Part shown: one piece after another, positions 20,960 through 43,311 of the stretch
Layout: every line of letters begins with the position of its first letter
Numbering within the stretch: position 1 is the first letter of the stretch
Assembly: GCA_016861265.1 (NCBI GenBank)
Contig: BOLA01000001.1
Coordinates: forward strand, 761,352-825,351
Length of the DNA: 64,000 nucleotides
Direction of reading: 5' to 3'
Origin: Patescibacteria group bacterium
GTDB lineage: Bacteria > Patescibacteriota > Dojkabacteria > J137
Program-made: the position numbers and the translations under genes
Notes under the pieces: generated by a model
What the model saw: the letters and a program-made list of their open reading frames with translations, nothing else
Database searches by the model: none
What the model was told of the DNA's origin: nothing

Positions 20960-22204
20960 ATGAGTTTTAACCTACAATCAAAATACAAACCTTCAGGCGA
21001 TCAGCCTGCAGCAATAGAGACTTTATCTGCAGGAATAGAAGCCGGGATAAAACACCAAACAATCGTTGGTGCGACTGGAACTGGAAAAACATTCAGTATG
21101 GCAAACGTTATTAAAAACACGAACAGACCTACTTTAATTCTATCGCATAACAAAACATTGGCTGCTCAACTATATGCCGAATTTAAGGAGTTTTTTCCCG
21201 ATAACGCTGTTGAATACTTTGTAAGTTACTACGATTATTACCAACCGGAGGCATATGTGCCATCAAGAGATTTATATATTGAAAAAGATTCAGATATAAA
21301 TGAAGTAATTGAAAGATATAGAAATTCCGCAACTCAGGCGCTACTTTCACGGAGAGATACAATAATTGTTTCAACAGTTAGCTGTATTTATGGTTTAGGA
21401 GATCCTGGAGACTATAACGACCTTAGTTTAGTCGTAGAGATTGGAAAATCTTATAACAGGGAAAATGTCTTAGTTAGACTTAGAGACATGATGTACGAAA
21501 GAGTGAATAATGATTTTTCGAATGGTACTTTTAGAGTACGAGGGGAGTATATTGATATAAATTTAACTACATCTGATGATCGTGCAATTAGGTTAATCTT
21601 CTTTGGAGACGAACTAGAAGAAATCAAAATTTTGAATCCAATAAGTGGTGAAGTTGTAGGTAGGGCTGATCAAGTACAAATATTCCCTGCAAAGCATAAC
21701 GTAAGTCCTCAGGAGAAAATTAATCATGCCATTAAGCGAATTGGAGAAGATCTTGAGTTAGAGACAAAAGAATTTACCGATAAAGGCAAATTAATTGAAT
21801 CTACCAGATTAAAACAAAGAGTAACTTACGATCTTGAAATGATGCAGGAGACAGGCTTTTGTAAAGGAATTGAAAATTATTCAAGATATATAGAGAATCG
21901 ACCAGTGGGTTCGGCTCCATCTACTCTGCTTTCTTACTTTCCTAGTGATTACTTAATGTTTATCGACGAATCTCACATTACTGTACCTCAGATTGGAGGA
22001 ATGTATGAAGGAGATAAAGCTAGAAAATTAAATTTAGTAGACTATGGTTTTAGAATGAGAGCTGCTTTAGATAATAGACCTTTAAAGTTTGATGAGTTCA
22101 AACAAAAAACTAACCAAATTATCTATGTAAGTGCCACACCTGCAAAGTATGAGTTAGAACTAAGTCAGCAGTCTGCAAAGGAAGTACTTAACAAGAATAA
22201 CTAA
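20960..22204 (+). CDS. uvrB: Excinuclease ABC subunit B, N-terminal 414 aa only. Helicase domain 3 and the C-terminal UvrC-binding domain are absent.
   Basis: Walker A GATGTGKTFSMANVI, beta-hairpin YYDYYQPEAYVP, domain 2, then ...IYVSATPAKYELE followed by a stop. No continuation in any frame before the next gene at 22306. Confidence 0.8.
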   Translation: MSFNLQSKYKPSGDQPAAIETLSAGIEAGIKHQTIVGATGTGKTFSMANVIKNTNRPTLILSHNKTLAAQLYAEFKEFFPDNAVEYFVSYYDYYQPEAYVPSRDLYIEKDSDINEVIERYRNSATQALLSRRDTIIVSTVSCIYGLGDPGDYNDLSLVVEIGKSYNRENVLVRLRDMMYERVNNDFSNGTFRVRGEYIDINLTTSDDRAIRLIFFGDELEEIKILNPISGEVVGRADQVQIFPAKHNVSPQEKINHAIKRIGEDLELETKEFTDKGKLIESTRLKQRVTYDLEMMQETGFCKGIENYSRYIENRPVGSAPSTLLSYFPSDYLMFIDESHITVPQIGGMYEGDKARKLNLVDYGFRMRAALDNRPLKFDEFKQKTNQIIYVSATPAKYELELSQQSAKEVLNKNN

Positions 22205-26162: not shown

Positions 26163-26606
26163 TTAGAAACTGGTTAAAATTAATTCTACTTTATCACCTG
26201 GTGCAATTTTTAATTCGCTAATTCCTACCTGAGCATCTGCACCGTTTATTTTAATATTCCAAAACTCATTATCCTTTGTTGTATATCCATTTACAGTGGT
26301 AATCATTTTTCCAAATGAGAAATCTGCATATTCAACAGAAAATTCGTCACTAGATGAATCCAGGGTATTGAATACAGTCAAAAGGCTATCAGTATTCTGT
26401 AGATTAAAATCGTAATTGTAATCTTTTTCCAGACTAGCTGCATTTACTACTTTTATAGCAAGAGTTTGATTTTGAGAAACTGAGGTTTGATCCGAAGTAT
26501 TGTTAATTGTTGATCCACCGCCAACAATTACTACACCAAATACTGCAAGAACTAAAATAATTAGGGACGCTAATGCAGCCCACACACCTAAACCTAACTT
26601 CTTCAT
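26163..26606 (-). CDS. DUF4430-domain secreted protein (B12-binding, transcobalamin-like by family association)
   Basis: Signal anchor then a DUF4430-like region (FSVEYADFSFGKMITTVNGY...WNIKINGA). Confidence 0.5.
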   Translation of the reverse strand: MKKLGLGVWAALASLIILVLAVFGVVIVGGGSTINNTSDQTSVSQNQTLAIKVVNAASLEKDYNYDFNLQNTDSLLTVFNTLDSSSDEFSVEYADFSFGKMITTVNGYTTKDNEFWNIKINGADAQVGISELKIAPGDKVELILTSF

Positions 26607-26620
26607 TTCACGGAAGATAA

Positions 26621-26760
26621 AAAATAAATTAAAAACTTCCTAACAGGAAGTAATTTATTTTTATTCCTGCTCGGGTGTTTTTTATAGTAGGATCGGACTT
26701 CCATTTATTGGTTACCGTTGCGGCACAGTTCAGGAGTTGCACCTGATTCACTACTTGTTT
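26621..26760 (-). promoter_or_regulatory. Cobalamin (B12) riboswitch with terminator-type expression platform, upstream of the DUF4430 / S-component operon
   Basis: Minus-strand core AAUCAGGUGCAACUCCUGAACUGUGCCGCAACGGUAACC...GGAAGUCCGAUCC closely parallels the E. coli btuB leader. Terminator acttcctgttaggaagt plus TTTTAATTTATTTTTT precedes the ATG. Putative TTGACA-16-TAGAAT promoter at 26792-26765. Confidence 0.7.
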
Positions 26761-26798
26761 TCTAATTCTATATCAGAAAATAATTTTGTCAAACTTTT

Positions 26799-27473
26799 TT
26801 ATTCTTCTGTTTCTATTTTACCTTCTATCTTAGCTTTTCTTCGTTTATAAACTTTTTTTATAATAAAATATGCAATTGCAGCAGCTAGTGCAAATGCAAT
26901 AACAATTTCAAATTGATGAATGTATTCTGTTAATCTCTTCCATTCTTCGCCTAGAAAATAAGAAACAGTTGCTAATAATGTACACCAGATAAATGCTCCT
27001 ACAAATGTATAAATTCTAAATTTCACAAAATTTACTTTTAGAATACCCAATGGCAAAGAAATAAATGTTCTGATTACCGGTAATAGTTGCCCAATAAAAA
27101 TAATTTTATCGCCATATTTTTTTAGCCAGCCTTCTACTCTTTCAAATTTCTCCTCTGTTACATGTACATACTTACCGTATTTATTTAGAACGGGTCTTCC
27201 TCCGCGACTACCAAGAACATACATTGAAGTTGAGCCTAAAGCATTACCAAGTGCACCAATTAAACCTACTACAATTATTGTTAATACAGGATTCCCACCT
27301 ACGGTAAGTCTTCCATCGTAAACCAAAAAACCCGCAATTCCCATAATGATTTCTGATGGAAGTGGTATGCTAGCAGCTTCAATCGCCATGCCCAGGAATA
27401 CACCTATAAATCCTAAATCTGAAACAAACTGAATTACCCAATTAATTATTGGCTCTAAAACTGATGCTAGCAT
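26799..27473 (-). CDS. DedA / SNARE-associated (VTT-domain) membrane protein
   Basis: FLGMAIEAASIPLPSEII re-entrant motif of the DedA family. Confidence 0.75.
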   Translation of the reverse strand: MLASVLEPIINWVIQFVSDLGFIGVFLGMAIEAASIPLPSEIIMGIAGFLVYDGRLTVGGNPVLTIIVVGLIGALGNALGSTSMYVLGSRGGRPVLNKYGKYVHVTEEKFERVEGWLKKYGDKIIFIGQLLPVIRTFISLPLGILKVNFVKFRIYTFVGAFIWCTLLATVSYFLGEEWKRLTEYIHQFEIVIAFALAAAIAYFIIKKVYKRRKAKIEGKIETEE

Positions 27474-30765: not shown

Positions 30766-33363
30766 TTGAAATCACTATTTAGGTTATTCAAAAACGAAAA
30801 GTATAGAACTTTATTTCTGGTATTCATTTTTATCTTCAACTCAGCAGTATTTTTTAAGATGTCTGCTGATGTTAAGTATACCTCTACAGCAGGTGCATGT
30901 AACTTGTGGTGTATTGCAGACCCAGAAACTTCACAAGTAAATACAAGTATGAATGTAGGTGGAATTGGAGCCTTTATTAACCAGCCTTTAAGTAACGGGT
31001 TTTTAGGCGATGAACTCTACTCTGTTAAATATGCCAGATGCGTTGATGAATTAGGTAAGGATGCTTGTAAACCAGAATACACAACTCTTCAGACTGCTAT
31101 GTACTTAGGTTCCCCCGATGGGAGTACATTCAGCACAGTGAACGCAATATCATCTTTAAATGTAGCTATTATTACAGATAGACCCATTAGTGCTGTAGAT
31201 TACTTTCAAGACAAAGTTTATGCATTAACACACTTTAATACTGTTTCTGCTCAACCAGCTGATGCAAGTATTACAGGACGAGAAGCATATTACTCTCCAG
31301 GAGGAACAGGATTTAATTTATTAAAACCTATTCAGAACTTTTGGAGTTGGTCTGTAAGAGTGGTTTATGGTTTTTTACTTATTATTGTTGTAATAATTGC
31401 ATTTGCAATTATGTTCAGGCAAAGGCTTTCAGGTAACGTAGAAGTTACAGTTCAGAATGCCATTCCTGCCATTGCAATGGCCATGATTTTGGTTCCATTA
31501 AGTTACGCAATTTCCGGATTGTTTATTGATTTTATTACTGTGGGAACAAATGCAGTACATGAGTTCTTAATAGGAACTCCGGGTTCTCCAGGACATAGCT
31601 TCTACCAAGGTTCAGACGATCCAGATAATCTTAGAAATCCTCTAAACTCAAGTGATCCATATACTGATAGAGGTTATTACCCAGACGATGTTAGAGTTGA
31701 TTGGTTAAGGGCAAGAGATAAGATTAATGTTTCAACAACCTTTGGTGCAGTTGCGCAAGATTTAGGAGAAGTTTCAGGACTTAATGGAAATGTAATCTTT
31801 CTTGCTGTGGGCAGTATAGTGAATGCACTAACAGGAAAAGGTCAGGATGCAGACCCTGCGGACTTTACCTGGGTGGGTGATATTGTTCAATTCTTTATTT
31901 CCATTGTTACTCTCTGGATTGGTATTCAAATTTTCGTGCACTTATTTAAAAAATACATAACAATAATACTTTACCCTGTAATGTCTCCATTTATATTCGC
32001 AACTGTTGCAATTCCTGGTAATGGTACAAAGAGTATTATGCAGTATGTAAAAGTTATGGGTGCCGCAGCCTTGGCGTTTATTGTTACTTACGCAATGTTC
32101 CTACTAAGTATTATATTTACCAGTAAGGAATTCTTAGCGGATGTACCAACATTTGCTAGTGGAAGTTTTAATCCACCTTTATTAGGACTTAAATCCATTG
32201 GTATAGGAAGTAACGAGATGACTCAATTACTATTAACATTAATAGGTCTAGGAATTTACTTCTCAATTCCTAATACATTAAAATCAATCGATACAGCTCT
32301 TGGAGCAAACAATCCATTACCTAAGTTTATTACAACACCTATTGATTCATTCAGAGAAAGTCAGAGAGTTATGTTTAAGACAGCACCAGCATTGGCAGGT
32401 AGAGCTGCATTAACTGGAGGTAGATTTGCTGGCAATGCTGCATCGTCTCCATTTAGAGCATTCTCAGGAGCCATGGATATTGCGGATAGAGTTAGGGGAA
32501 TTGATCCAGAGAAAGACTACAGAAGTTATAGAAATAGGCAAAGAGCTGCAAGACAGTCCAGAACGGATAGCACAAAAGCTTGGGTAGATAGAGCTAAGCA
32601 AAGTAAGAATCCGTTGGTTCGAGGAGCAGCTGCAGCAGCAGGTGCTGTGGCAAACGCAGAAAACACTCTTGCAGGACAAATTGAAGGTACAGGATCATCA
32701 CTACCTTCAGATGTTCAGAGACCAAAAGTAGAAATTACAGGTGATAAGATTTTAATTCCAAGACAAGACATTATCCCAATTTTGTCAGGTAAAGGTATTG
32801 TTACAAGAGGAAGAATAATTGACTACTCTGCCTACAATGCAGCTGGTAGAGGTGAAATAACATTAGCTACGGGAACTCTAGAGTTTAAGGTAACAGGACC
32901 TTCGGTTAATCTTCAGTTCCCCCCAAGCCTAGTGTTTGGAGATACTGTGCCTAAATATACCGGAAGAACGGATGCATTTAAATATGGAAAAGATTTATTC
33001 ACAATTAAGCAGTCTGGGACTACAGAAACTCAGATCGATAAACTTGAATATAAAGATGTAAGTAATACAGATAAGAAGGTAAATTCTGGGACTCCAGAGA
33101 AACTAGCAATTATGTTAGATAAAGGTGTTAAGCCAGGAGGTAACGATACTGTTAAGGTTGACTACAGAATTATAACAAGGGATCCAGAAGGATTGTTTGG
33201 TACAACTACTGCAAATCCTAGTATTCTAACTCCAAATAGTGCTGCTGCTATCTTGAGGCCTGGAGTAGAAGTTAAGACTGAGAATCCTGCATATGCTGTC
33301 AAGGTTAATGGTAATGATGACTTTACTACAAACCCATTCAAATTTTCTGTTAGACTGTCATAA
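30766..33363 (+). CDS. Large polytopic membrane protein with a VirB6/TrbL-like central TM bundle and long extracytoplasmic N- and C-terminal regions
   Basis: 865 aa. Signal anchor, Cys-containing N-domain, 6-7 clustered TM helices (WSVRVVYGFLLII..., IPAIAMAMILVPL..., FFISIVTLWIG..., LYPVMSPFIFATV..., LLLTLIGLGIYF), then Gly/Ala/Arg-rich and beta-rich C-terminal regions. Confidence 0.4.
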   Translation: MKSLFRLFKNEKYRTLFLVFIFIFNSAVFFKMSADVKYTSTAGACNLWCIADPETSQVNTSMNVGGIGAFINQPLSNGFLGDELYSVKYARCVDELGKDACKPEYTTLQTAMYLGSPDGSTFSTVNAISSLNVAIITDRPISAVDYFQDKVYALTHFNTVSAQPADASITGREAYYSPGGTGFNLLKPIQNFWSWSVRVVYGFLLIIVVIIAFAIMFRQRLSGNVEVTVQNAIPAIAMAMILVPLSYAISGLFIDFITVGTNAVHEFLIGTPGSPGHSFYQGSDDPDNLRNPLNSSDPYTDRGYYPDDVRVDWLRARDKINVSTTFGAVAQDLGEVSGLNGNVIFLAVGSIVNALTGKGQDADPADFTWVGDIVQFFISIVTLWIGIQIFVHLFKKYITIILYPVMSPFIFATVAIPGNGTKSIMQYVKVMGAAALAFIVTYAMFLLSIIFTSKEFLADVPTFASGSFNPPLLGLKSIGIGSNEMTQLLLTLIGLGIYFSIPNTLKSIDTALGANNPLPKFITTPIDSFRESQRVMFKTAPALAGRAALTGGRFAGNAASSPFRAFSGAMDIADRVRGIDPEKDYRSYRNRQRAARQSRTDSTKAWVDRAKQSKNPLVRGAAAAAGAVANAENTLAGQIEGTGSSLPSDVQRPKVEITGDKILIPRQDIIPILSGKGIVTRGRIIDYSAYNAAGRGEITLATGTLEFKVTGPSVNLQFPPSLVFGDTVPKYTGRTDAFKYGKDLFTIKQSGTTETQIDKLEYKDVSNTDKKVNSGTPEKLAIMLDKGVKPGGNDTVKVDYRIITRDPEGLFGTTTANPSILTPNSAAAILRPGVEVKTENPAYAVKVNGNDDFTTNPFKFSVRLS

Positions 33364-33367
33364 TTCG

Positions 33368-35041
33368 TCACAATACATTTCCGCCGTTCAAATACTCAGT
33401 TAGAACTTCAAAGTTTTCCTCCTCAAAATGAATATTTTCTGAAAGGAATATATTGTTGTAACCAATTAGTCTAAGATTTTCTAATAGATTCTTTACATTT
33501 ATTGTAATTATTATATCTTTCTCATCAAGTAAATTTTTTTCCCTCACTTGAAGTATGGAGTAAGTGTTGGAAATTGAAAACACACCGTTTATTATTGAGA
33601 GGTAGGCTTTTACAGCCTTTTCATTAATGAAATCTAATATATGCTTAATGTAATTAGAATCTGAACTAAAAATATCAATAATGTTTTCAATTTGTATATC
33701 TTCCTTTTTTATTATTGAATTTTCAATACTAGTTTCAATAATATTAATTATCAATCCCGAATCATCTTTGGGTGTGGAAATAATACTTCTTAACTCAATT
33801 GCTGTGTTTAATAATTCAATTGAACGCTTAAGATTATAGATTTCAAAATTTATTGGCACTGCAATGAAATCATTTAGAACATCCGCTATAAATTTGGATT
33901 TATTCTCTATCCTAGAAATAATTTGTGTTCTTGTATCTTCGTCGATTTCCAATTCAATATTTCCTTCAAATGTAGAGAATAGTATTTGTAAGATAGGGCC
34001 ATTGTCATATATAAATTGGAGTAAGCTTACATTGAATTCTTCGTAATATTTTAAAAAATTGCACTGATATTTCAATGTTAGTGTAAAAAATTGTGTAATC
34101 TCATTATTAAGTATTTTTTCCTCTCTTAATCTGTCTAGTAGTTCGTAGAAGTCTTTGTCATCAGTAATAATATTAAGATCTTTCATTTTGACCTCTTTTA
34201 CACTACTATCAAATATAGTTCGAGAGAATTCGATTAGGAAGTCTAAATCTCGTTGATTTAGATTAGATAAACTTGAGAAGATGTTTCTAAAGTTTTCCTT
34301 ACTAATACTGTTTAGTTTAATAAGGTAATTAATCTTTTTTAATAAATAATCACTACCGGCATTTATAGATCTATAATAATCCAACTTATTCTTGATTACT
34401 TTTAGATTTATACCTGAAGTTATGCCTGCAACCGTAATTGAATTATTGATTTTGTAAAATTCTGCAGGGTTTATGCATTCAAGATAACTCGAAATGAAAT
34501 TACAAATGTAGAATCTAACATTGGAATTATTTATATTTGACTCCGTGATAATCTCAATATTTTTCATGAACTCGTTAAAAAGAGACTCAATATCTTCTGT
34601 ATAAATAAATATTCTAAGTAACTGCTCTACTTCAACTTTCAGGAGACTTAATAATAAGGCAGGATCTACCTGAGACTCGGAACACAAGTCTCTTATAAAC
34701 TCTAGTGTAGTTTCATCTTTACTATAAATATTCGATATTAATTCTATTAATTTAGTATGAGTATTCCCTTGGATAAAATGAGTATAAATTTTATTGAGAA
34801 TTTCTCTCTGTTCTAATTTTTTAGATAAATCAATTTCATTTGTAAGGATTTCCTTAGTTGAAAAATGCAATAATCCAATGGGAGAGAATGTATAGTTATT
34901 TGGATAATAGAAGATTACATCTTTTTGGGGTATTTCAAAAATTGAGGAGAATAAGTAGTACCGAGCTAATGTCAGTTTCTCTTGATTCAGTTTGTACTTT
35001 ATATTACCTTGTAGGTATTGATATATGTATTCCTCATTCAT
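33368..35041 (-). CDS. Hypothetical cytoplasmic protein (557 aa, Asn/Ile/Leu/Glu-rich)
   Basis: Clean long ORF, no motif recognised. Confidence 0.5.
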   Translation of the reverse strand: MNEEYIYQYLQGNIKYKLNQEKLTLARYYLFSSIFEIPQKDVIFYYPNNYTFSPIGLLHFSTKEILTNEIDLSKKLEQREILNKIYTHFIQGNTHTKLIELISNIYSKDETTLEFIRDLCSESQVDPALLLSLLKVEVEQLLRIFIYTEDIESLFNEFMKNIEIITESNINNSNVRFYICNFISSYLECINPAEFYKINNSITVAGITSGINLKVIKNKLDYYRSINAGSDYLLKKINYLIKLNSISKENFRNIFSSLSNLNQRDLDFLIEFSRTIFDSSVKEVKMKDLNIITDDKDFYELLDRLREEKILNNEITQFFTLTLKYQCNFLKYYEEFNVSLLQFIYDNGPILQILFSTFEGNIELEIDEDTRTQIISRIENKSKFIADVLNDFIAVPINFEIYNLKRSIELLNTAIELRSIISTPKDDSGLIINIIETSIENSIIKKEDIQIENIIDIFSSDSNYIKHILDFINEKAVKAYLSIINGVFSISNTYSILQVREKNLLDEKDIIITINVKNLLENLRLIGYNNIFLSENIHFEEENFEVLTEYLNGGNVL

Positions 35042-35043
35042 AA

Positions 35044-35892
35044 TTAGGCTGCTTTAGTGAGTGCCGCCGGTTGTCCAAAAGACAGTAAATTGGAAATTTT
35101 CTCCACTGCTGTAAGGGTCTCATGTGTAATTCCAGAATCCACAGGCTCAAGACCTTTTAGCTCTGGGTCGAGTTTTGCTAAACTGCCTGGAATTCTATTT
35201 AAAATGGTTCTGCCGGCTAAGAAATTAAGAGCAAATGCTGTAGTTTGTCCCAATATTGTTGTTGTCAAGTCAAATGGGGCCATTACTACGTTAGTTCCTG
35301 CAAGTAACATTCTATTTCTAAATGTATCATTATCACTACTACCATTAATGAATATTTCGAAGTCAGTTCTTTTATCAAAAGCAGCTCTATAAATTCTATC
35401 GCCTACTATAATAGGGCCAAGTACTGGACCAGCAAATCCTGGTAAAGCTAAGTGTGCTAAATTCATTGCGGTAATTTCTCCCGCACCATATTTAACAAGT
35501 CTTGGTGTTAGATTAATTAATTCTACAGCCTTATCTATTCCTTTTGCCTTCATGATTTGACTAACTTCGGGGGTTAACCTATCTGATATTCCTGAGGCTT
35601 GTTGTTTTCTGCCTTCCTTGGTTCCTATATTCACACCAAATGGACCAAAACTTAAACCCGGTTCTGCACCCCCTATAACCACATCTTTCAACTGTGCAGG
35701 TCCATAAGCTCCCGCTGGTAGTATTTCCGGTCTCTTTACCTTCTTGACTTTCCTTTGTCCTGGTTTCGAAACATCAATAGGCGACCATAACTCACTATCA
35801 ACAAGATCTCCTGCATTGTATGGTTGAGGTACACCCGCCGCATATCTTTCGGGTCTATGTATTCCTATTGGTCCAAATACACTTGATTTCAT
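35044..35892 (-). CDS. Hypothetical soluble protein (282 aa), Gly/Pro/Ala-rich, GC about 43-45%
   Basis: Clean ORF with codon composition shifted toward GC relative to neighbours. Confidence 0.5.
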   Translation of the reverse strand: MKSSVFGPIGIHRPERYAAGVPQPYNAGDLVDSELWSPIDVSKPGQRKVKKVKRPEILPAGAYGPAQLKDVVIGGAEPGLSFGPFGVNIGTKEGRKQQASGISDRLTPEVSQIMKAKGIDKAVELINLTPRLVKYGAGEITAMNLAHLALPGFAGPVLGPIIVGDRIYRAAFDKRTDFEIFINGSSDNDTFRNRMLLAGTNVVMAPFDLTTTILGQTTAFALNFLAGRTILNRIPGSLAKLDPELKGLEPVDSGITHETLTAVEKISNLLSFGQPAALTKAA

Positions 35893-40542: not shown

Positions 40543-41808
40543 ATGGCCACATTATATGAATCTGCTGGTACCGCTAGAAAAGCAGTTCTTGGTTTTGTAA
40601 TTTTTGCAGTACTTGTAATAGCATGGGAAGGGATCTCGAGTCTTTTCACTAAACAGCCTGGTGGCACCAGTCCACAATTCAGTTACTATATTCCAGCAGA
40701 TCTAGCACTAAAAAATGTTCCGCCTGTTTCTATTGACCCTATAAAAATTAGTACAGATATTACTCCAACTTATTCAATTGATAGAATAAGCAACCAATTA
40801 GTGAGTAAATTCCCCGATACTGCATATGTATATAAAATCGAGGAGCCTCGAGAAAAGCTAACAACAGTGGAAGATGCTGTAAAGACTGCTAAAACCTTAG
40901 GCTTCGATAGCGAATGTATCTCGGAAGATCAATACTTTGGAACCGATCCTAAAGCCAATAGATGCACCTATAAAGATGAACAATACACCTGGGTAGCATC
41001 TGAAGGAACTAAAACCCTAACATTCAATAAAACTACACAAGTCTGGGATTTAGCAACTGATTACTTTAACAATATTAACGTAAAGACTCTTGGTAATCTA
41101 AATTCAAACCTAAACGATTACATTAACATTGGTGCAAGTATTGTAAGCAGGCTCGGTTTTTCAAATGGTTTTGGTTTGGAATCTCCTTATGTTGAATATA
41201 TTCCTGCAGATCTAAACAATGCGGGAGCATTTTTTAAGCCTGAAAGAGATACTCAAGCTAGATTTGTTTTTGTTCAAGTGTTTAGAAATTTGCTTTTGGC
41301 CCAACCAAAATCAAAAACAGATCTAGAAAAAATAACTACAGATAAAGAAGTTTTAAATAATATACCTGCTCCACTTAATGGTAATGTTTATAGCTCTGAT
41401 CCTAGAGAAGGACAAGTAAGAATGATTGTTGGTAACAACGGTTCTCAAATTCCTAGAGATGTTTTCAGTATGAAGTTTACAGATTATGAGTATGCTACTA
41501 GAGGGGTTACCAAAGGAGTCTACCCTATTATTAATTTAACGGAAGCTTGGACAAAAGCTTCATCTGGCAAAGGTTTTCTAGTATACTTACTACCTGAAAA
41601 CGGTAATCCATTAGAAACCTATAGTAACCTGCAAGTAAGGAGCTTTATTGCTGATGCAACAAAAACTACTTTGGGTTATTATGAACGTGATACTTGGAAT
41701 GGTTTTGTGTCACCTATATTTATTTTTAAAGGTAGAGCCGTTCTAGAAGATGGCAGACAAGCCAGCTTTACTATTTTTGTTGATGCATTAAAAAGATTAG
41801 AATCTTAA
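40543..41808 (+). CDS. Hypothetical secreted or membrane-anchored protein (421 aa)
   Basis: N-terminal TM (AVLGFVIFAVLVIAW) then a beta-rich domain. Confidence 0.5.
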   Translation: MATLYESAGTARKAVLGFVIFAVLVIAWEGISSLFTKQPGGTSPQFSYYIPADLALKNVPPVSIDPIKISTDITPTYSIDRISNQLVSKFPDTAYVYKIEEPREKLTTVEDAVKTAKTLGFDSECISEDQYFGTDPKANRCTYKDEQYTWVASEGTKTLTFNKTTQVWDLATDYFNNINVKTLGNLNSNLNDYINIGASIVSRLGFSNGFGLESPYVEYIPADLNNAGAFFKPERDTQARFVFVQVFRNLLLAQPKSKTDLEKITTDKEVLNNIPAPLNGNVYSSDPREGQVRMIVGNNGSQIPRDVFSMKFTDYEYATRGVTKGVYPIINLTEAWTKASSGKGFLVYLLPENGNPLETYSNLQVRSFIADATKTTLGYYERDTWNGFVSPIFIFKGRAVLEDGRQASFTIFVDALKRLES

Positions 41809-41811
41809 TCT

Positions 41812-43311
41812 ATGAATAAAATAAAAGTAATATTAATTGTTTTGATTTTAGTTCCAGTTGTTTCGGTTATTCTCCCTTCTAATTCTGTGTTTAATAATAA
41901 ATTATGTGCTGCCGTTGAAGTAAACAGAGGGAATGCATGTATTGATAATACGACAGTATGTCCAAGCGGCTATACAGTTGCTGCTGACTACTTTTCTGGT
42001 GCTACCCTAACTCAGATGAGAGCTAATCAGGTGTCTGCCGCTTTTGCATCTACATACGGACAAGATTCGCTCAGAACAATGTGTATAAGAAGCAACTTTA
42101 GAACTATTATTCCTGTATACACTGCAACGGGTCGAGTGGATGCTGGTTCAGGAGGACAAAATATTCAGGCAATATCCGAATCAGGATCGCCGGCGCTAGA
42201 TACTGTTAGAGTTGCTAGAGCCTGTCCATCTGGTTGGCATGCAGATCAAGGCAATTATTCATTAGCAACATTAGGAATTGAAATTACTTCATGGAGGGAA
42301 CCTTGGGGTTGCTGTCCGTCTGGATATAACTTTATTAACACTAAGAATCAAACATTCCCAGATGGCTATCAGGTTGGTGTTTGTGCTAAATCAAGAATAA
42401 ATGGAGGTATACCGGATTACTTAGAAACTGAAGGACATAATGCGGGTAATGGAATTTACGATGCTGCGGGTAACTTACTAGTGGCTTTTCCCGCCAACGA
42501 TGGATATAGTCAGTTTTCCTCTTGGGCAGATCTGGAGGCAGCTGTAGGAACAGCCGATTTTATATACTCCTATACAACCAATGAGGGTAATATTGTACAA
42601 CCTGTAGTCGGTCAAGGATTAGGAGTAAGATTCAAAGATTTAAATCTAGACGGTCAAGAACCTAGAGTTAGAACAGGGCCTCCACCAACAGGTGCTACAA
42701 AAAAGTGTCCTTCTAATTCTGCATGTGCGATTATTGGAGATGGAAACGATATTAATGCTGTTATTCCGGCAAGTAGGTTAGAGCAAGCAGGAAACGCCGA
42801 TTCTTGCAGTAAATGTTTTACGGCAGGTGATACAATCGGTACCTCCACTGCTGCTTCTGGTTCTACCGACAACCCCGACACTGACATCGACGAAAGTGTT
42901 GGATTTGTTCGTTATTGTAATGCCGATGGAACTTTTAGAGATGAAACACTCTTAGGAACCCCAGATATTACTAAGGGTTATCTATTAGAAGATTCAACAA
43001 ATAAAGCATTATACGATCAGTGTTTTAGTACAGGTGGAATATATACAGCAATTGGTTGTATTGACCCTACTCCCACTGGAATTATTACCGGTTTAATTAG
43101 AATTGCATTAGGAGTTATGGGCGGCGTTGCTCTACTTCAAATGATTTATGTCGGAATTCTTTATCAACAAGGAAACACTGAGAAAATTAAGGGTGCAAGA
43201 ACACAATTAATTGCTACATTAACCGGAGTAGCTGTATTGGTATTCAGCGTGCTAATATTAAGAATAATAGGAGTTAATGTCCTAGACGTATTATCAGTAG
43301 GTAGCGTTTAA
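41812..43311 (+). CDS. Cys-rich secreted protein with a C-terminal double-TM hairpin (VirB2/TrbC-pilin-like C-terminus)
   Basis: Signal peptide, about 20 Cys, then C-terminal GIITGLIRIALGVMGGVALLQMIYVG ... LIATLTGVAVLVFSVLILRIIG. Confidence 0.45.
   Translation: MNKIKVILIVLILVPVVSVILPSNSVFNNKLCAAVEVNRGNACIDNTTVCPSGYTVAADYFSGATLTQMRANQVSAAFASTYGQDSLRTMCIRSNFRTIIPVYTATGRVDAGSGGQNIQAISESGSPALDTVRVARACPSGWHADQGNYSLATLGIEITSWREPWGCCPSGYNFINTKNQTFPDGYQVGVCAKSRINGGIPDYLETEGHNAGNGIYDAAGNLLVAFPANDGYSQFSSWADLEAAVGTADFIYSYTTNEGNIVQPVVGQGLGVRFKDLNLDGQEPRVRTGPPPTGATKKCPSNSACAIIGDGNDINAVIPASRLEQAGNADSCSKCFTAGDTIGTSTAASGSTDNPDTDIDESVGFVRYCNADGTFRDETLLGTPDITKGYLLEDSTNKALYDQCFSTGGIYTAIGCIDPTPTGIITGLIRIALGVMGGVALLQMIYVGILYQQGNTEKIKGARTQLIATLTGVAVLVFSVLILRIIGVNVLDVLSVGSV

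Follow-up and report, generated by a model that had tools for sequence, protein, structure and literature searches.

Among described cobalamin riboswitches, members of RF01689 such as env8HyCbl favour hydroxo- or methyl-cobalamin and discriminate against AdoCbl (PMC5028336), and the kissing loop of env8HyCbl has a bulge (PMC10653944). For the metE leader of Priestia megaterium, the logic of P13, antiterminator, and terminator has been proven by mutagenesis: the terminator forms as long as the kissing loop keeps P13 closed, and failing this, the antiterminator role falls to the 3′ side of P13 (PMC10653944). On the protein side, vertebrate transcobalamins carry DUF4430 as their C-terminal domain (PMC4350170). 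The closest described gene set is the nrdJ-cbrS-cbrT-pduO cluster of L. delbrueckii (PMC5997447), and BtuM of Thiobacillus denitrificans is a solitary S-component-like B12 transporter (PMC6072759).

We analysed a 64-kb stretch of DNA from a member of the Patescibacteria (CPR), which is referred to as the window. On its minus strand, a structured leader precedes two genes, one encoding a DUF4430 protein and the other a DUF6580 membrane protein. We put at nearly four in five the probability that this leader is a class II (AdoCbl-variant/env8HyCbl-like) cobalamin riboswitch that turns off, at the level of transcription, an operon of two genes for corrinoid uptake. The original prediction had placed a cobalamin riboswitch of the btuB type, with a terminator, ahead of the genes for DUF4430 and a small membrane protein; this arrangement stands, whereas the btuB-type class does not.

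The core strings on which that prediction relied, AAUCAGGUGCAACUCCUGAACUGUGCCGCAACGGUAACC...GGAAGUCCGAUCC, were confirmed in the sequence at their minus-strand position, within the aptamer core at 26755-26686. A permissive local Rfam scan of 26550-26850 (301 nt) gave a match to RF01689 (AdoCbl-II, cobalamin clan CL00101) at 26767-26680 with 33.3 bits and an E-value of 2.7e-6, which by our own arithmetic scales to about 6e-4 for the 64-kb window. The resemblance of the aptamer to the cobalamin family is more than chance. By gathering score the window copy falls short of RF01689 membership, whose threshold is 36.5 bits. The whole-window Rfam scan at gathering thresholds reported a T-box and five tRNAs and, for this reason, no cobalamin family. 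Some relatives score higher: loci L002 (38.0 bits) and L005 (43.9 bits) lie above the RF01689 threshold, and L007 lies above that of RF01482. In the local scan, two weaker matches of the same clan overlap the RF01689 match and are hidden by clan competition.

The aptamer comprises 70 nt (26755-26686, minus strand). Its only closing helix is P3, of 5 bp, in which AGUAG (26755-26751) pairs with CUACU (26690-26686); outer P1 and P2 are absent. P4 pairs 26745-26742 with 26734-26731, and P5 consists of two base pairs closing loop L5, UGCCG (26725-26721). P6 pairs CGG (26717-26715) with CCG (26696-26694) and is topped by a small cap, an 11-nt hairpin of 3-4 bp at 26711-26701, which is absent in L019, L030, and L005. 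The large P6 extension with peripheral helices that characterizes RF00174 is missing, as it is in class II. The window aptamer is a four-way junction of class II architecture, unlike the btuB type. A classical class I btuB-like riboswitch (RF00174) sensing AdoCbl would account for the similarity of the core strings to the btuB core, and RF00174 belongs to the clan whose weaker matches are hidden beneath the RF01689 match. We nevertheless regard it as very unlikely and rejected RF00174 as the family, since nothing reaches its 31.5-bit threshold in the whole window and RF01689 outscores it locally. Moreover, the P6 cap has 3-4 bp, or is lacking altogether in relatives, as opposed to the large class I extension, and L5 reads UGCCG instead of the UCCCG consensus cited in PMC10653944. 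Class II is hence the assignment we adopt, even though its best family, RF01689, is itself matched below threshold. Given its resemblance to the family, the RNA of the window may share the preference for hydroxo- or methyl-cobalamin, and because the RF01689 family has this preference, an assay with AdoCbl only could mislead.

A promoter-like site at 26792-26765 on the minus strand matches 11 of 12 consensus positions. Its -35 element is TTGACA (26792-26787) and its -10 element is TAGAAT (26770-26765), separated by a 16-nt spacer. The predicted transcription start, at about 26758, is three bases 5′ of P3. As judged by eye, a -10-like hexamer occurs at a comparable distance in L001, L002, L033, and L003.

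For comparative evidence we took 80 genome loci around DUF6580 homologues (designated by L numbers), the names of which include Candidatus Dojkabacteria and thus make a Patescibacteria (CPR) genome the most likely origin of the window. A combined nhmmer and motif scan located the aptamer core CUGUGCCGCAAC a few hundred bases 5′ of the gene in many loci, and a second motif, YCCGAGCAGRA, is conserved 3′ of the aptamer in nearly all relatives. MAFFT leader alignments placed J3/4 out of register. A covariance model, R1, was therefore built instead from seven in-register relatives as seeds, with the window left out, and the remaining sequences were aligned by Infernal. R1 yielded 51 matches (E up to 1) across 551 kb, and its sole match in the window has 87.5 bits and an E-value of 6e-21. 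Over 50 distinct sequences, standard pairs occupy 93.8% of cells, compared with 68% for column shuffles and 35-51% for slid partners, although these counts are inflated because the alignment was fitted to the proposed structure. Changes on both sides are seen in 17 of the 21 pairs, to which P3, P4, P5, P6, the optional P6 cap, and P13 all contribute, so that every helix of the aptamer covaries. The four-way junction formed by P3, P4, P5, and P6 and supported by this covariation is that of the RF01689 members. RNAalifold alone recovered P3 and P4 with covariation, and not the other helices. The Rfam score below threshold might be taken to mean that the resemblance is accidental and that no functional RNA exists. 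The covariation contradicts this notion, and the element is conserved, with compensatory changes, in 40 of 80 independent loci, where it nearly always lies on the strand of the genes and just 5′ of the same pair; we give it a negligible probability. Among loci L001-L020, only three (L002, L005, and L007) of the 16 that are positive with R1 pass the Rfam gathering score. B12 regulons in CPR genomes, and the cobalamin riboswitches that define them, are therefore probably under-annotated by curated thresholds.

The second conserved motif forms a hairpin, P13/L13 (26675-26666, minus strand), which starts 10 nt 3′ of the aptamer. Its stem P13 has two base pairs (CC/GG), both of which covary from C-G to U-A, and its loop L13 reads CGAGCA (26673-26668). 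L5 (UGCCG) is complementary to L13 (CG[A]GCA) through five pairs with the A bulged. The L5-L13 cells are complementary in 96.6% of cases over 50 sequences, which corresponds to the kissing loop of RF01689. Compensatory changes are seen in L042 and L072, where UACCG faces CGAG(G)UA, and in L038, where UCUCG faces CGAAGA; G-U intermediates are present in L044 and L079. Because the kissing-loop bases are almost invariant, the covariation in support of L5-L13 comes from three or four sequences. At the predicted bulge, L13 has substitutions or insertions, namely C in L003, AA in L033, and UA in L038. A 3-bp kissing-loop model was superseded by the 5-bp-plus-bulge model in light of PMC10653944.

Downstream of P13 lies an intrinsic terminator (26651-26619, minus strand), composed of the hairpin ACTTCCTGTTAGGAAGT (26651-26635), with a 7-bp stem (ACUUCCU/AGGAAGU), and the U tract UUUUAAUUUAUUUUUU (26634-26619). 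The T-run ends 12 nt from the ATG at 26606, as anticipated for a terminator hairpin and U-tract directly ahead of the start codon. The terminator stem is weak, with -6.6 kcal/mol and three G-C pairs. An antiterminator (26671-26642) is formed by AGCAGGAA (26671-26664) and UUCCUGUU (26649-26642), and this pairing can coexist neither with P13 nor with the terminator. The minimum free energy structure of the expression platform, at -11.3 kcal/mol, uses the antiterminator pairing, as compared with -6.6 kcal/mol for the terminator alone. In the 27 loci with a callable terminator, to which the comparison was limited, the P13 motif matches the terminator 5′ arm and loop better than it does shuffled arms, with a median z of -2.6. 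For the window the values are -10.0 versus -4.8, and 3 of 200 shuffles are as good. The antiterminator sequences vary among loci; in L060, for example, UCCGAGCAG pairs with CUGCUCGGA. At the level of sequence, the leader has the terminator, and the mutually exclusive antiterminator sharing P13 bases, of a terminating OFF riboswitch. An activating design is disfavoured because P13 and the terminator proper have no bases in common.

In the mechanism we propose, bound cobalamin would let L5 kiss L13 and P13 would stay closed. With P13 closed, the terminator would form and transcription would end before the ATG. When cobalamin is lacking, pairing of AGCAGGAA with UUCCUGUU would block the terminator, and the operon would be transcribed. 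Two designs are found 3′ of P13 among the relatives. In Woesebacteria/Gottesmanbacteria loci, the AUG is 0-7 nt behind P13, for which reason we take AGGA, which P13 carries on its 3′ side, to be the ribosome-binding site; the group to which the window belongs has a terminator and U tract. Given these relatives and env8HyCbl, which uses sequestration of the ribosome-binding site (PMC5028336), control in the window might be translational as well, with the ribosome-binding site held in P13. The chance of this appears slim, as P13 of the window is 60 nt 5′ of the ATG with the terminator hairpin and U tract in the intervening stretch, and the antiterminator pairing has been kept across loci. Transcription termination is the form of OFF control that we favour.

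The first gene of the operon (26606-26163, minus strand) encodes a protein of 147 aa. Residues 90-145 match DUF4430 (PF14478) with 44.7 bits against a gathering threshold of 23.8 and an E-value of 1.9e-11; they are preceded by an N-terminal hydrophobic membrane anchor and a polar linker. In several relatives, a lipobox takes the place of the hydrophobic anchor. The protein had been described as a secreted DUF4430 protein. The domain is correct, but given the membrane anchor the protein is not obviously secreted. We predict it to be an extracellular corrinoid binder. In L. rhamnosus, a gene for a DUF4430 protein adjoins the B12-dependent reductase gene rtpR. Compared with PDB sequences, the window protein gave only a marginal match, to 3u7z (E 0.72), and an exact-protein look-up, in which the query included the stop codon, returned no record. 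Bacteroides BtuH was considered as another DUF4430 carrier and dropped, as the BtuH paper does not contain DUF4430 and the related B12-binding domain in the literature is DUF4465.

The second gene (26161-25634, minus strand) starts 1 nt after the DUF4430 stop and encodes a membrane protein of 175 aa with six helices, in agreement with the five or six transmembrane segments foreseen. Residues 3-163 match DUF6580 (PF20221) with 110.5 bits (gathering threshold 27) and an E-value of 1.3e-31. The six helices are those of the S-component fold. The proposal of an ECF S-component such as CbrT therefore survives as to the fold and not as to CbrT, to which DUF6580 has no detectable similarity. The DUF6580 profile found nothing among PDB sequences at E<=10, no sequence link from DUF6580 to any proven B12 transporter was found, and the DUF6580 alignment has no invariant Cys or His. 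A full-text literature search returned no papers that mention DUF6580, and we found no literature linking cobalamin riboswitches to Patescibacteria. We predict that the protein is an S-component-like transporter that translocates corrinoids. In the uptake scheme we envisage, the membrane-anchored DUF4430 protein would capture a corrinoid outside the cell, and the DUF6580 protein, with its S-component fold, would carry it across the membrane.

Enzymes that could use the imported corrinoid are encoded elsewhere in the window. The PduO-type ATP:cob(I)alamin adenosyltransferase (30671-30108; PF01923, E 1.9e-49; TIGR00636) is 3.4 kb upstream on the same strand. NrdJ, a class II B12-dependent ribonucleotide reductase (56224-52547), and NrdR (56843-56373) are also encoded on the minus strand; all three had been named beforehand and are present. 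PduO would adenosylate the imported corrinoid for NrdJ. Pfam annotation of nearly all ORFs in the 64-kb window revealed neither a further ribonucleotide reductase nor cob/cbi genes nor an ECF module. The gene content is compatible with the theme, put forward earlier, of B12 salvage leading to NrdJ.

Several other features of the window were recorded. A T-box leader (25524-25330, minus strand; 97.6 bits), which has a promoter-like site and a terminator of its own, is situated immediately 3′ of the DUF6580 gene and 5′ of alaS (25300-23309). A UvrB-like ORF on the plus strand (20960-22204, 414 aa) has the ResIII and UvrB interaction domains without the C-terminal helicase part, so that uvrB may have been truncated or split here; the gene next after it encodes an unrelated membrane protein. 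Large ORFs of 865, 557, 282, 421, and 499 aa at 30766-35892 and 40543-43311 match no Pfam family at E<=1e-4.

Across the 80 loci, a DUF4430-like ORF is located upstream of DUF6580 on the same strand in 75. The riboswitch model matches 40 of the 80 loci at E<0.01. The riboswitch immediately precedes DUF4430 in 34 loci, and in three others it stands ahead of a large unknown ORF that is followed by the pair in a longer operon. Its strand is nearly always that of the genes. For about half of the DUF4430-DUF6580 loci, no riboswitch was detected within 3 kb. When the 40 loci lacking a strong model match were scanned at Rfam thresholds, a single cobalamin element emerged, RF00174 in L066. In L022 and L026, the riboswitch likely lies beyond the fetched flank. 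Five riboswitch-free pairs come directly after a corrinoid adenosyltransferase gene (at about 1800-2530 in the loci), which is of the cobA/btuR type in L025, L058, and L075, and of the pduO type in L028 and L035. As L025 is labelled Candidatus Iainarchaeum, a DPANN archaeon, the pair crosses domains. No B12 context is visible at the actinobacterial DUF4430-DUF6580 loci. An operon repressed by B12 might have a task other than B12 import, concerning another corrinoid, cobalt, or a B12-sparing function. We consider this unlikely, because DUF4430 belongs to the family of the transcobalamin C-terminal domain (PMC4350170) and the pair adjoins corrinoid adenosyltransferase genes in these five loci. 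B12 import is the function we prefer.

How the DUF6580 protein would be energized is a separate matter. It could serve a shared (group II) ECF transporter as S-component, with EcfA/A′/T encoded elsewhere as in ECF-CbrT, and would then not be a self-sufficient transporter like BtuM. This is a plausible arrangement to which we assign somewhat below even odds. S-component fold aside, the 64-kb window has no ABC ATPase signature, and of the 80 loci only three have ABC ATPase-like ORFs at a distance of up to 3 kb, on the opposite strand; the pair is therefore not encoded together with an ECF module of its own. Nor is an AxxxA-type motif conserved in helix 1 of the DUF6580 family consensus, as judged by eye.

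Some related CPR loci contain ORFs of 300-800 aa behind the same riboswitch, and these ORFs make up four or more small families. They are located at L037:164-2584, L053:222-2468, L013:473-2503, L070:1447-2958, L027:872-2242(-), L074:3792-4949, L079:1617-2990, L063:4271-5563, L029:3164-4063, and L064:3750-4739. Some of them lie between the riboswitch and the DUF4430-DUF6580 pair; others have their own riboswitch 3′ of DUF6580 and a zinc ribbon at the end. No Pfam family, PDB sequence homologue, or homologue in the window was found for these ORFs, which are candidates for B12-related proteins. In L070, two class II cobalamin riboswitches (L070:1167-1253 and L070:1310-1408) are arranged in tandem about 60 nt apart before the unknown ORF of 504 aa, and a third is on the opposite strand at L070:6051-6150. 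Group I intron matches flank three Woesebacteria-type loci (L039:4197-4489, L047:4518-4752, and L056:5349-5569).

The riboswitch is of a known kind and in itself adds little. Its value is that of a marker, as it points to a B12 role for the uncharacterised DUF6580 family of membrane proteins. Three independent lines, namely the riboswitch, the DUF4430 partner, and the adjacency to adenosyltransferase genes, tie DUF6580 to vitamin B12. The main product of this analysis is the sequence-based prediction that DUF4430 and DUF6580 make up a corrinoid uptake pair widespread in CPR; the second is that many cobalamin riboswitches of this group escape detection at curated thresholds. Scavenging of cofactors from hosts is believed to sustain CPR bacteria and DPANN archaea, and a concrete, testable B12 import system for them would be useful for that reason. 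A more far-reaching proposal, which we advance only tentatively and consider doubtful in its full extent, is that the pair might be a self-sufficient, ECF-module-independent corrinoid importer and the main B12 entry of Patescibacteria (CPR), present also in a DPANN archaeon and some Actinobacteria. According to this proposal, a CPR-wide lineage of class II riboswitches, mostly missed by Rfam thresholds, might sense aquo- or methyl-cobalamin and not AdoCbl, and the B12 regulon of the relatives might include at least four further families without Pfam assignment.

Compared with known systems, the leader is closest in architecture to env8HyCbl/RF01689, with which it shares a compact four-way junction without P6 extension, a bulged L5-L13 kissing loop, and AGGA in the 3′ side of P13 (PMC5028336; PMC10653944). 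It differs from RF01689 in its sub-threshold score, the lack of an outer helix, its L5 (UGCCG), and its L13 (CGAGCA). For its expression platform, the window relies on an intrinsic terminator and env8HyCbl on occlusion of the ribosome-binding site, and the hosts are Patescibacteria (CPR) and marine plankton, respectively. In regulatory logic, with a kissing loop that stabilises P13, the window resembles P. megaterium metE (Kennedy et al. 2023, PMC10653944). The metE leader, however, has a class I aptamer, an L5 of UCCCG, and a long P13 with an internal loop, whereas the window has a class II aptamer and a 2-bp P13, and is known from its sequence.

Of the two proteins, the DUF4430 protein belongs, above threshold, to the same Pfam family as the C-terminal (beta) domain of transcobalamin and intrinsic factor (PMC4350170). 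Unlike the vertebrate binders, it has no alpha domain and consists of one domain attached to a bacterial membrane anchor, and its B12 binding is putative. DUF6580 has no sequence similarity to BtuM (PMC6072759). The cobalt ligand of BtuM, Cys80, has no counterpart in DUF6580, whose alignment lacks any invariant Cys or His, and DUF6580 is paired with a DUF4430 partner, which BtuM lacks. By sequence, DUF6580 is not a CbrT homologue either. The genes of L. delbrueckii are clustered, whereas those of the window are dispersed over 30 kb, with the riboswitch on the pair and no ECF module nearby. The two sets nevertheless have in common a B12-dependent ribonucleotide reductase, PduO, a small extracytoplasmic partner protein, and a membrane protein with the S-component fold, and they would comprise the same parts if CbrS is a DUF4430 lipoprotein (PMC5997447).
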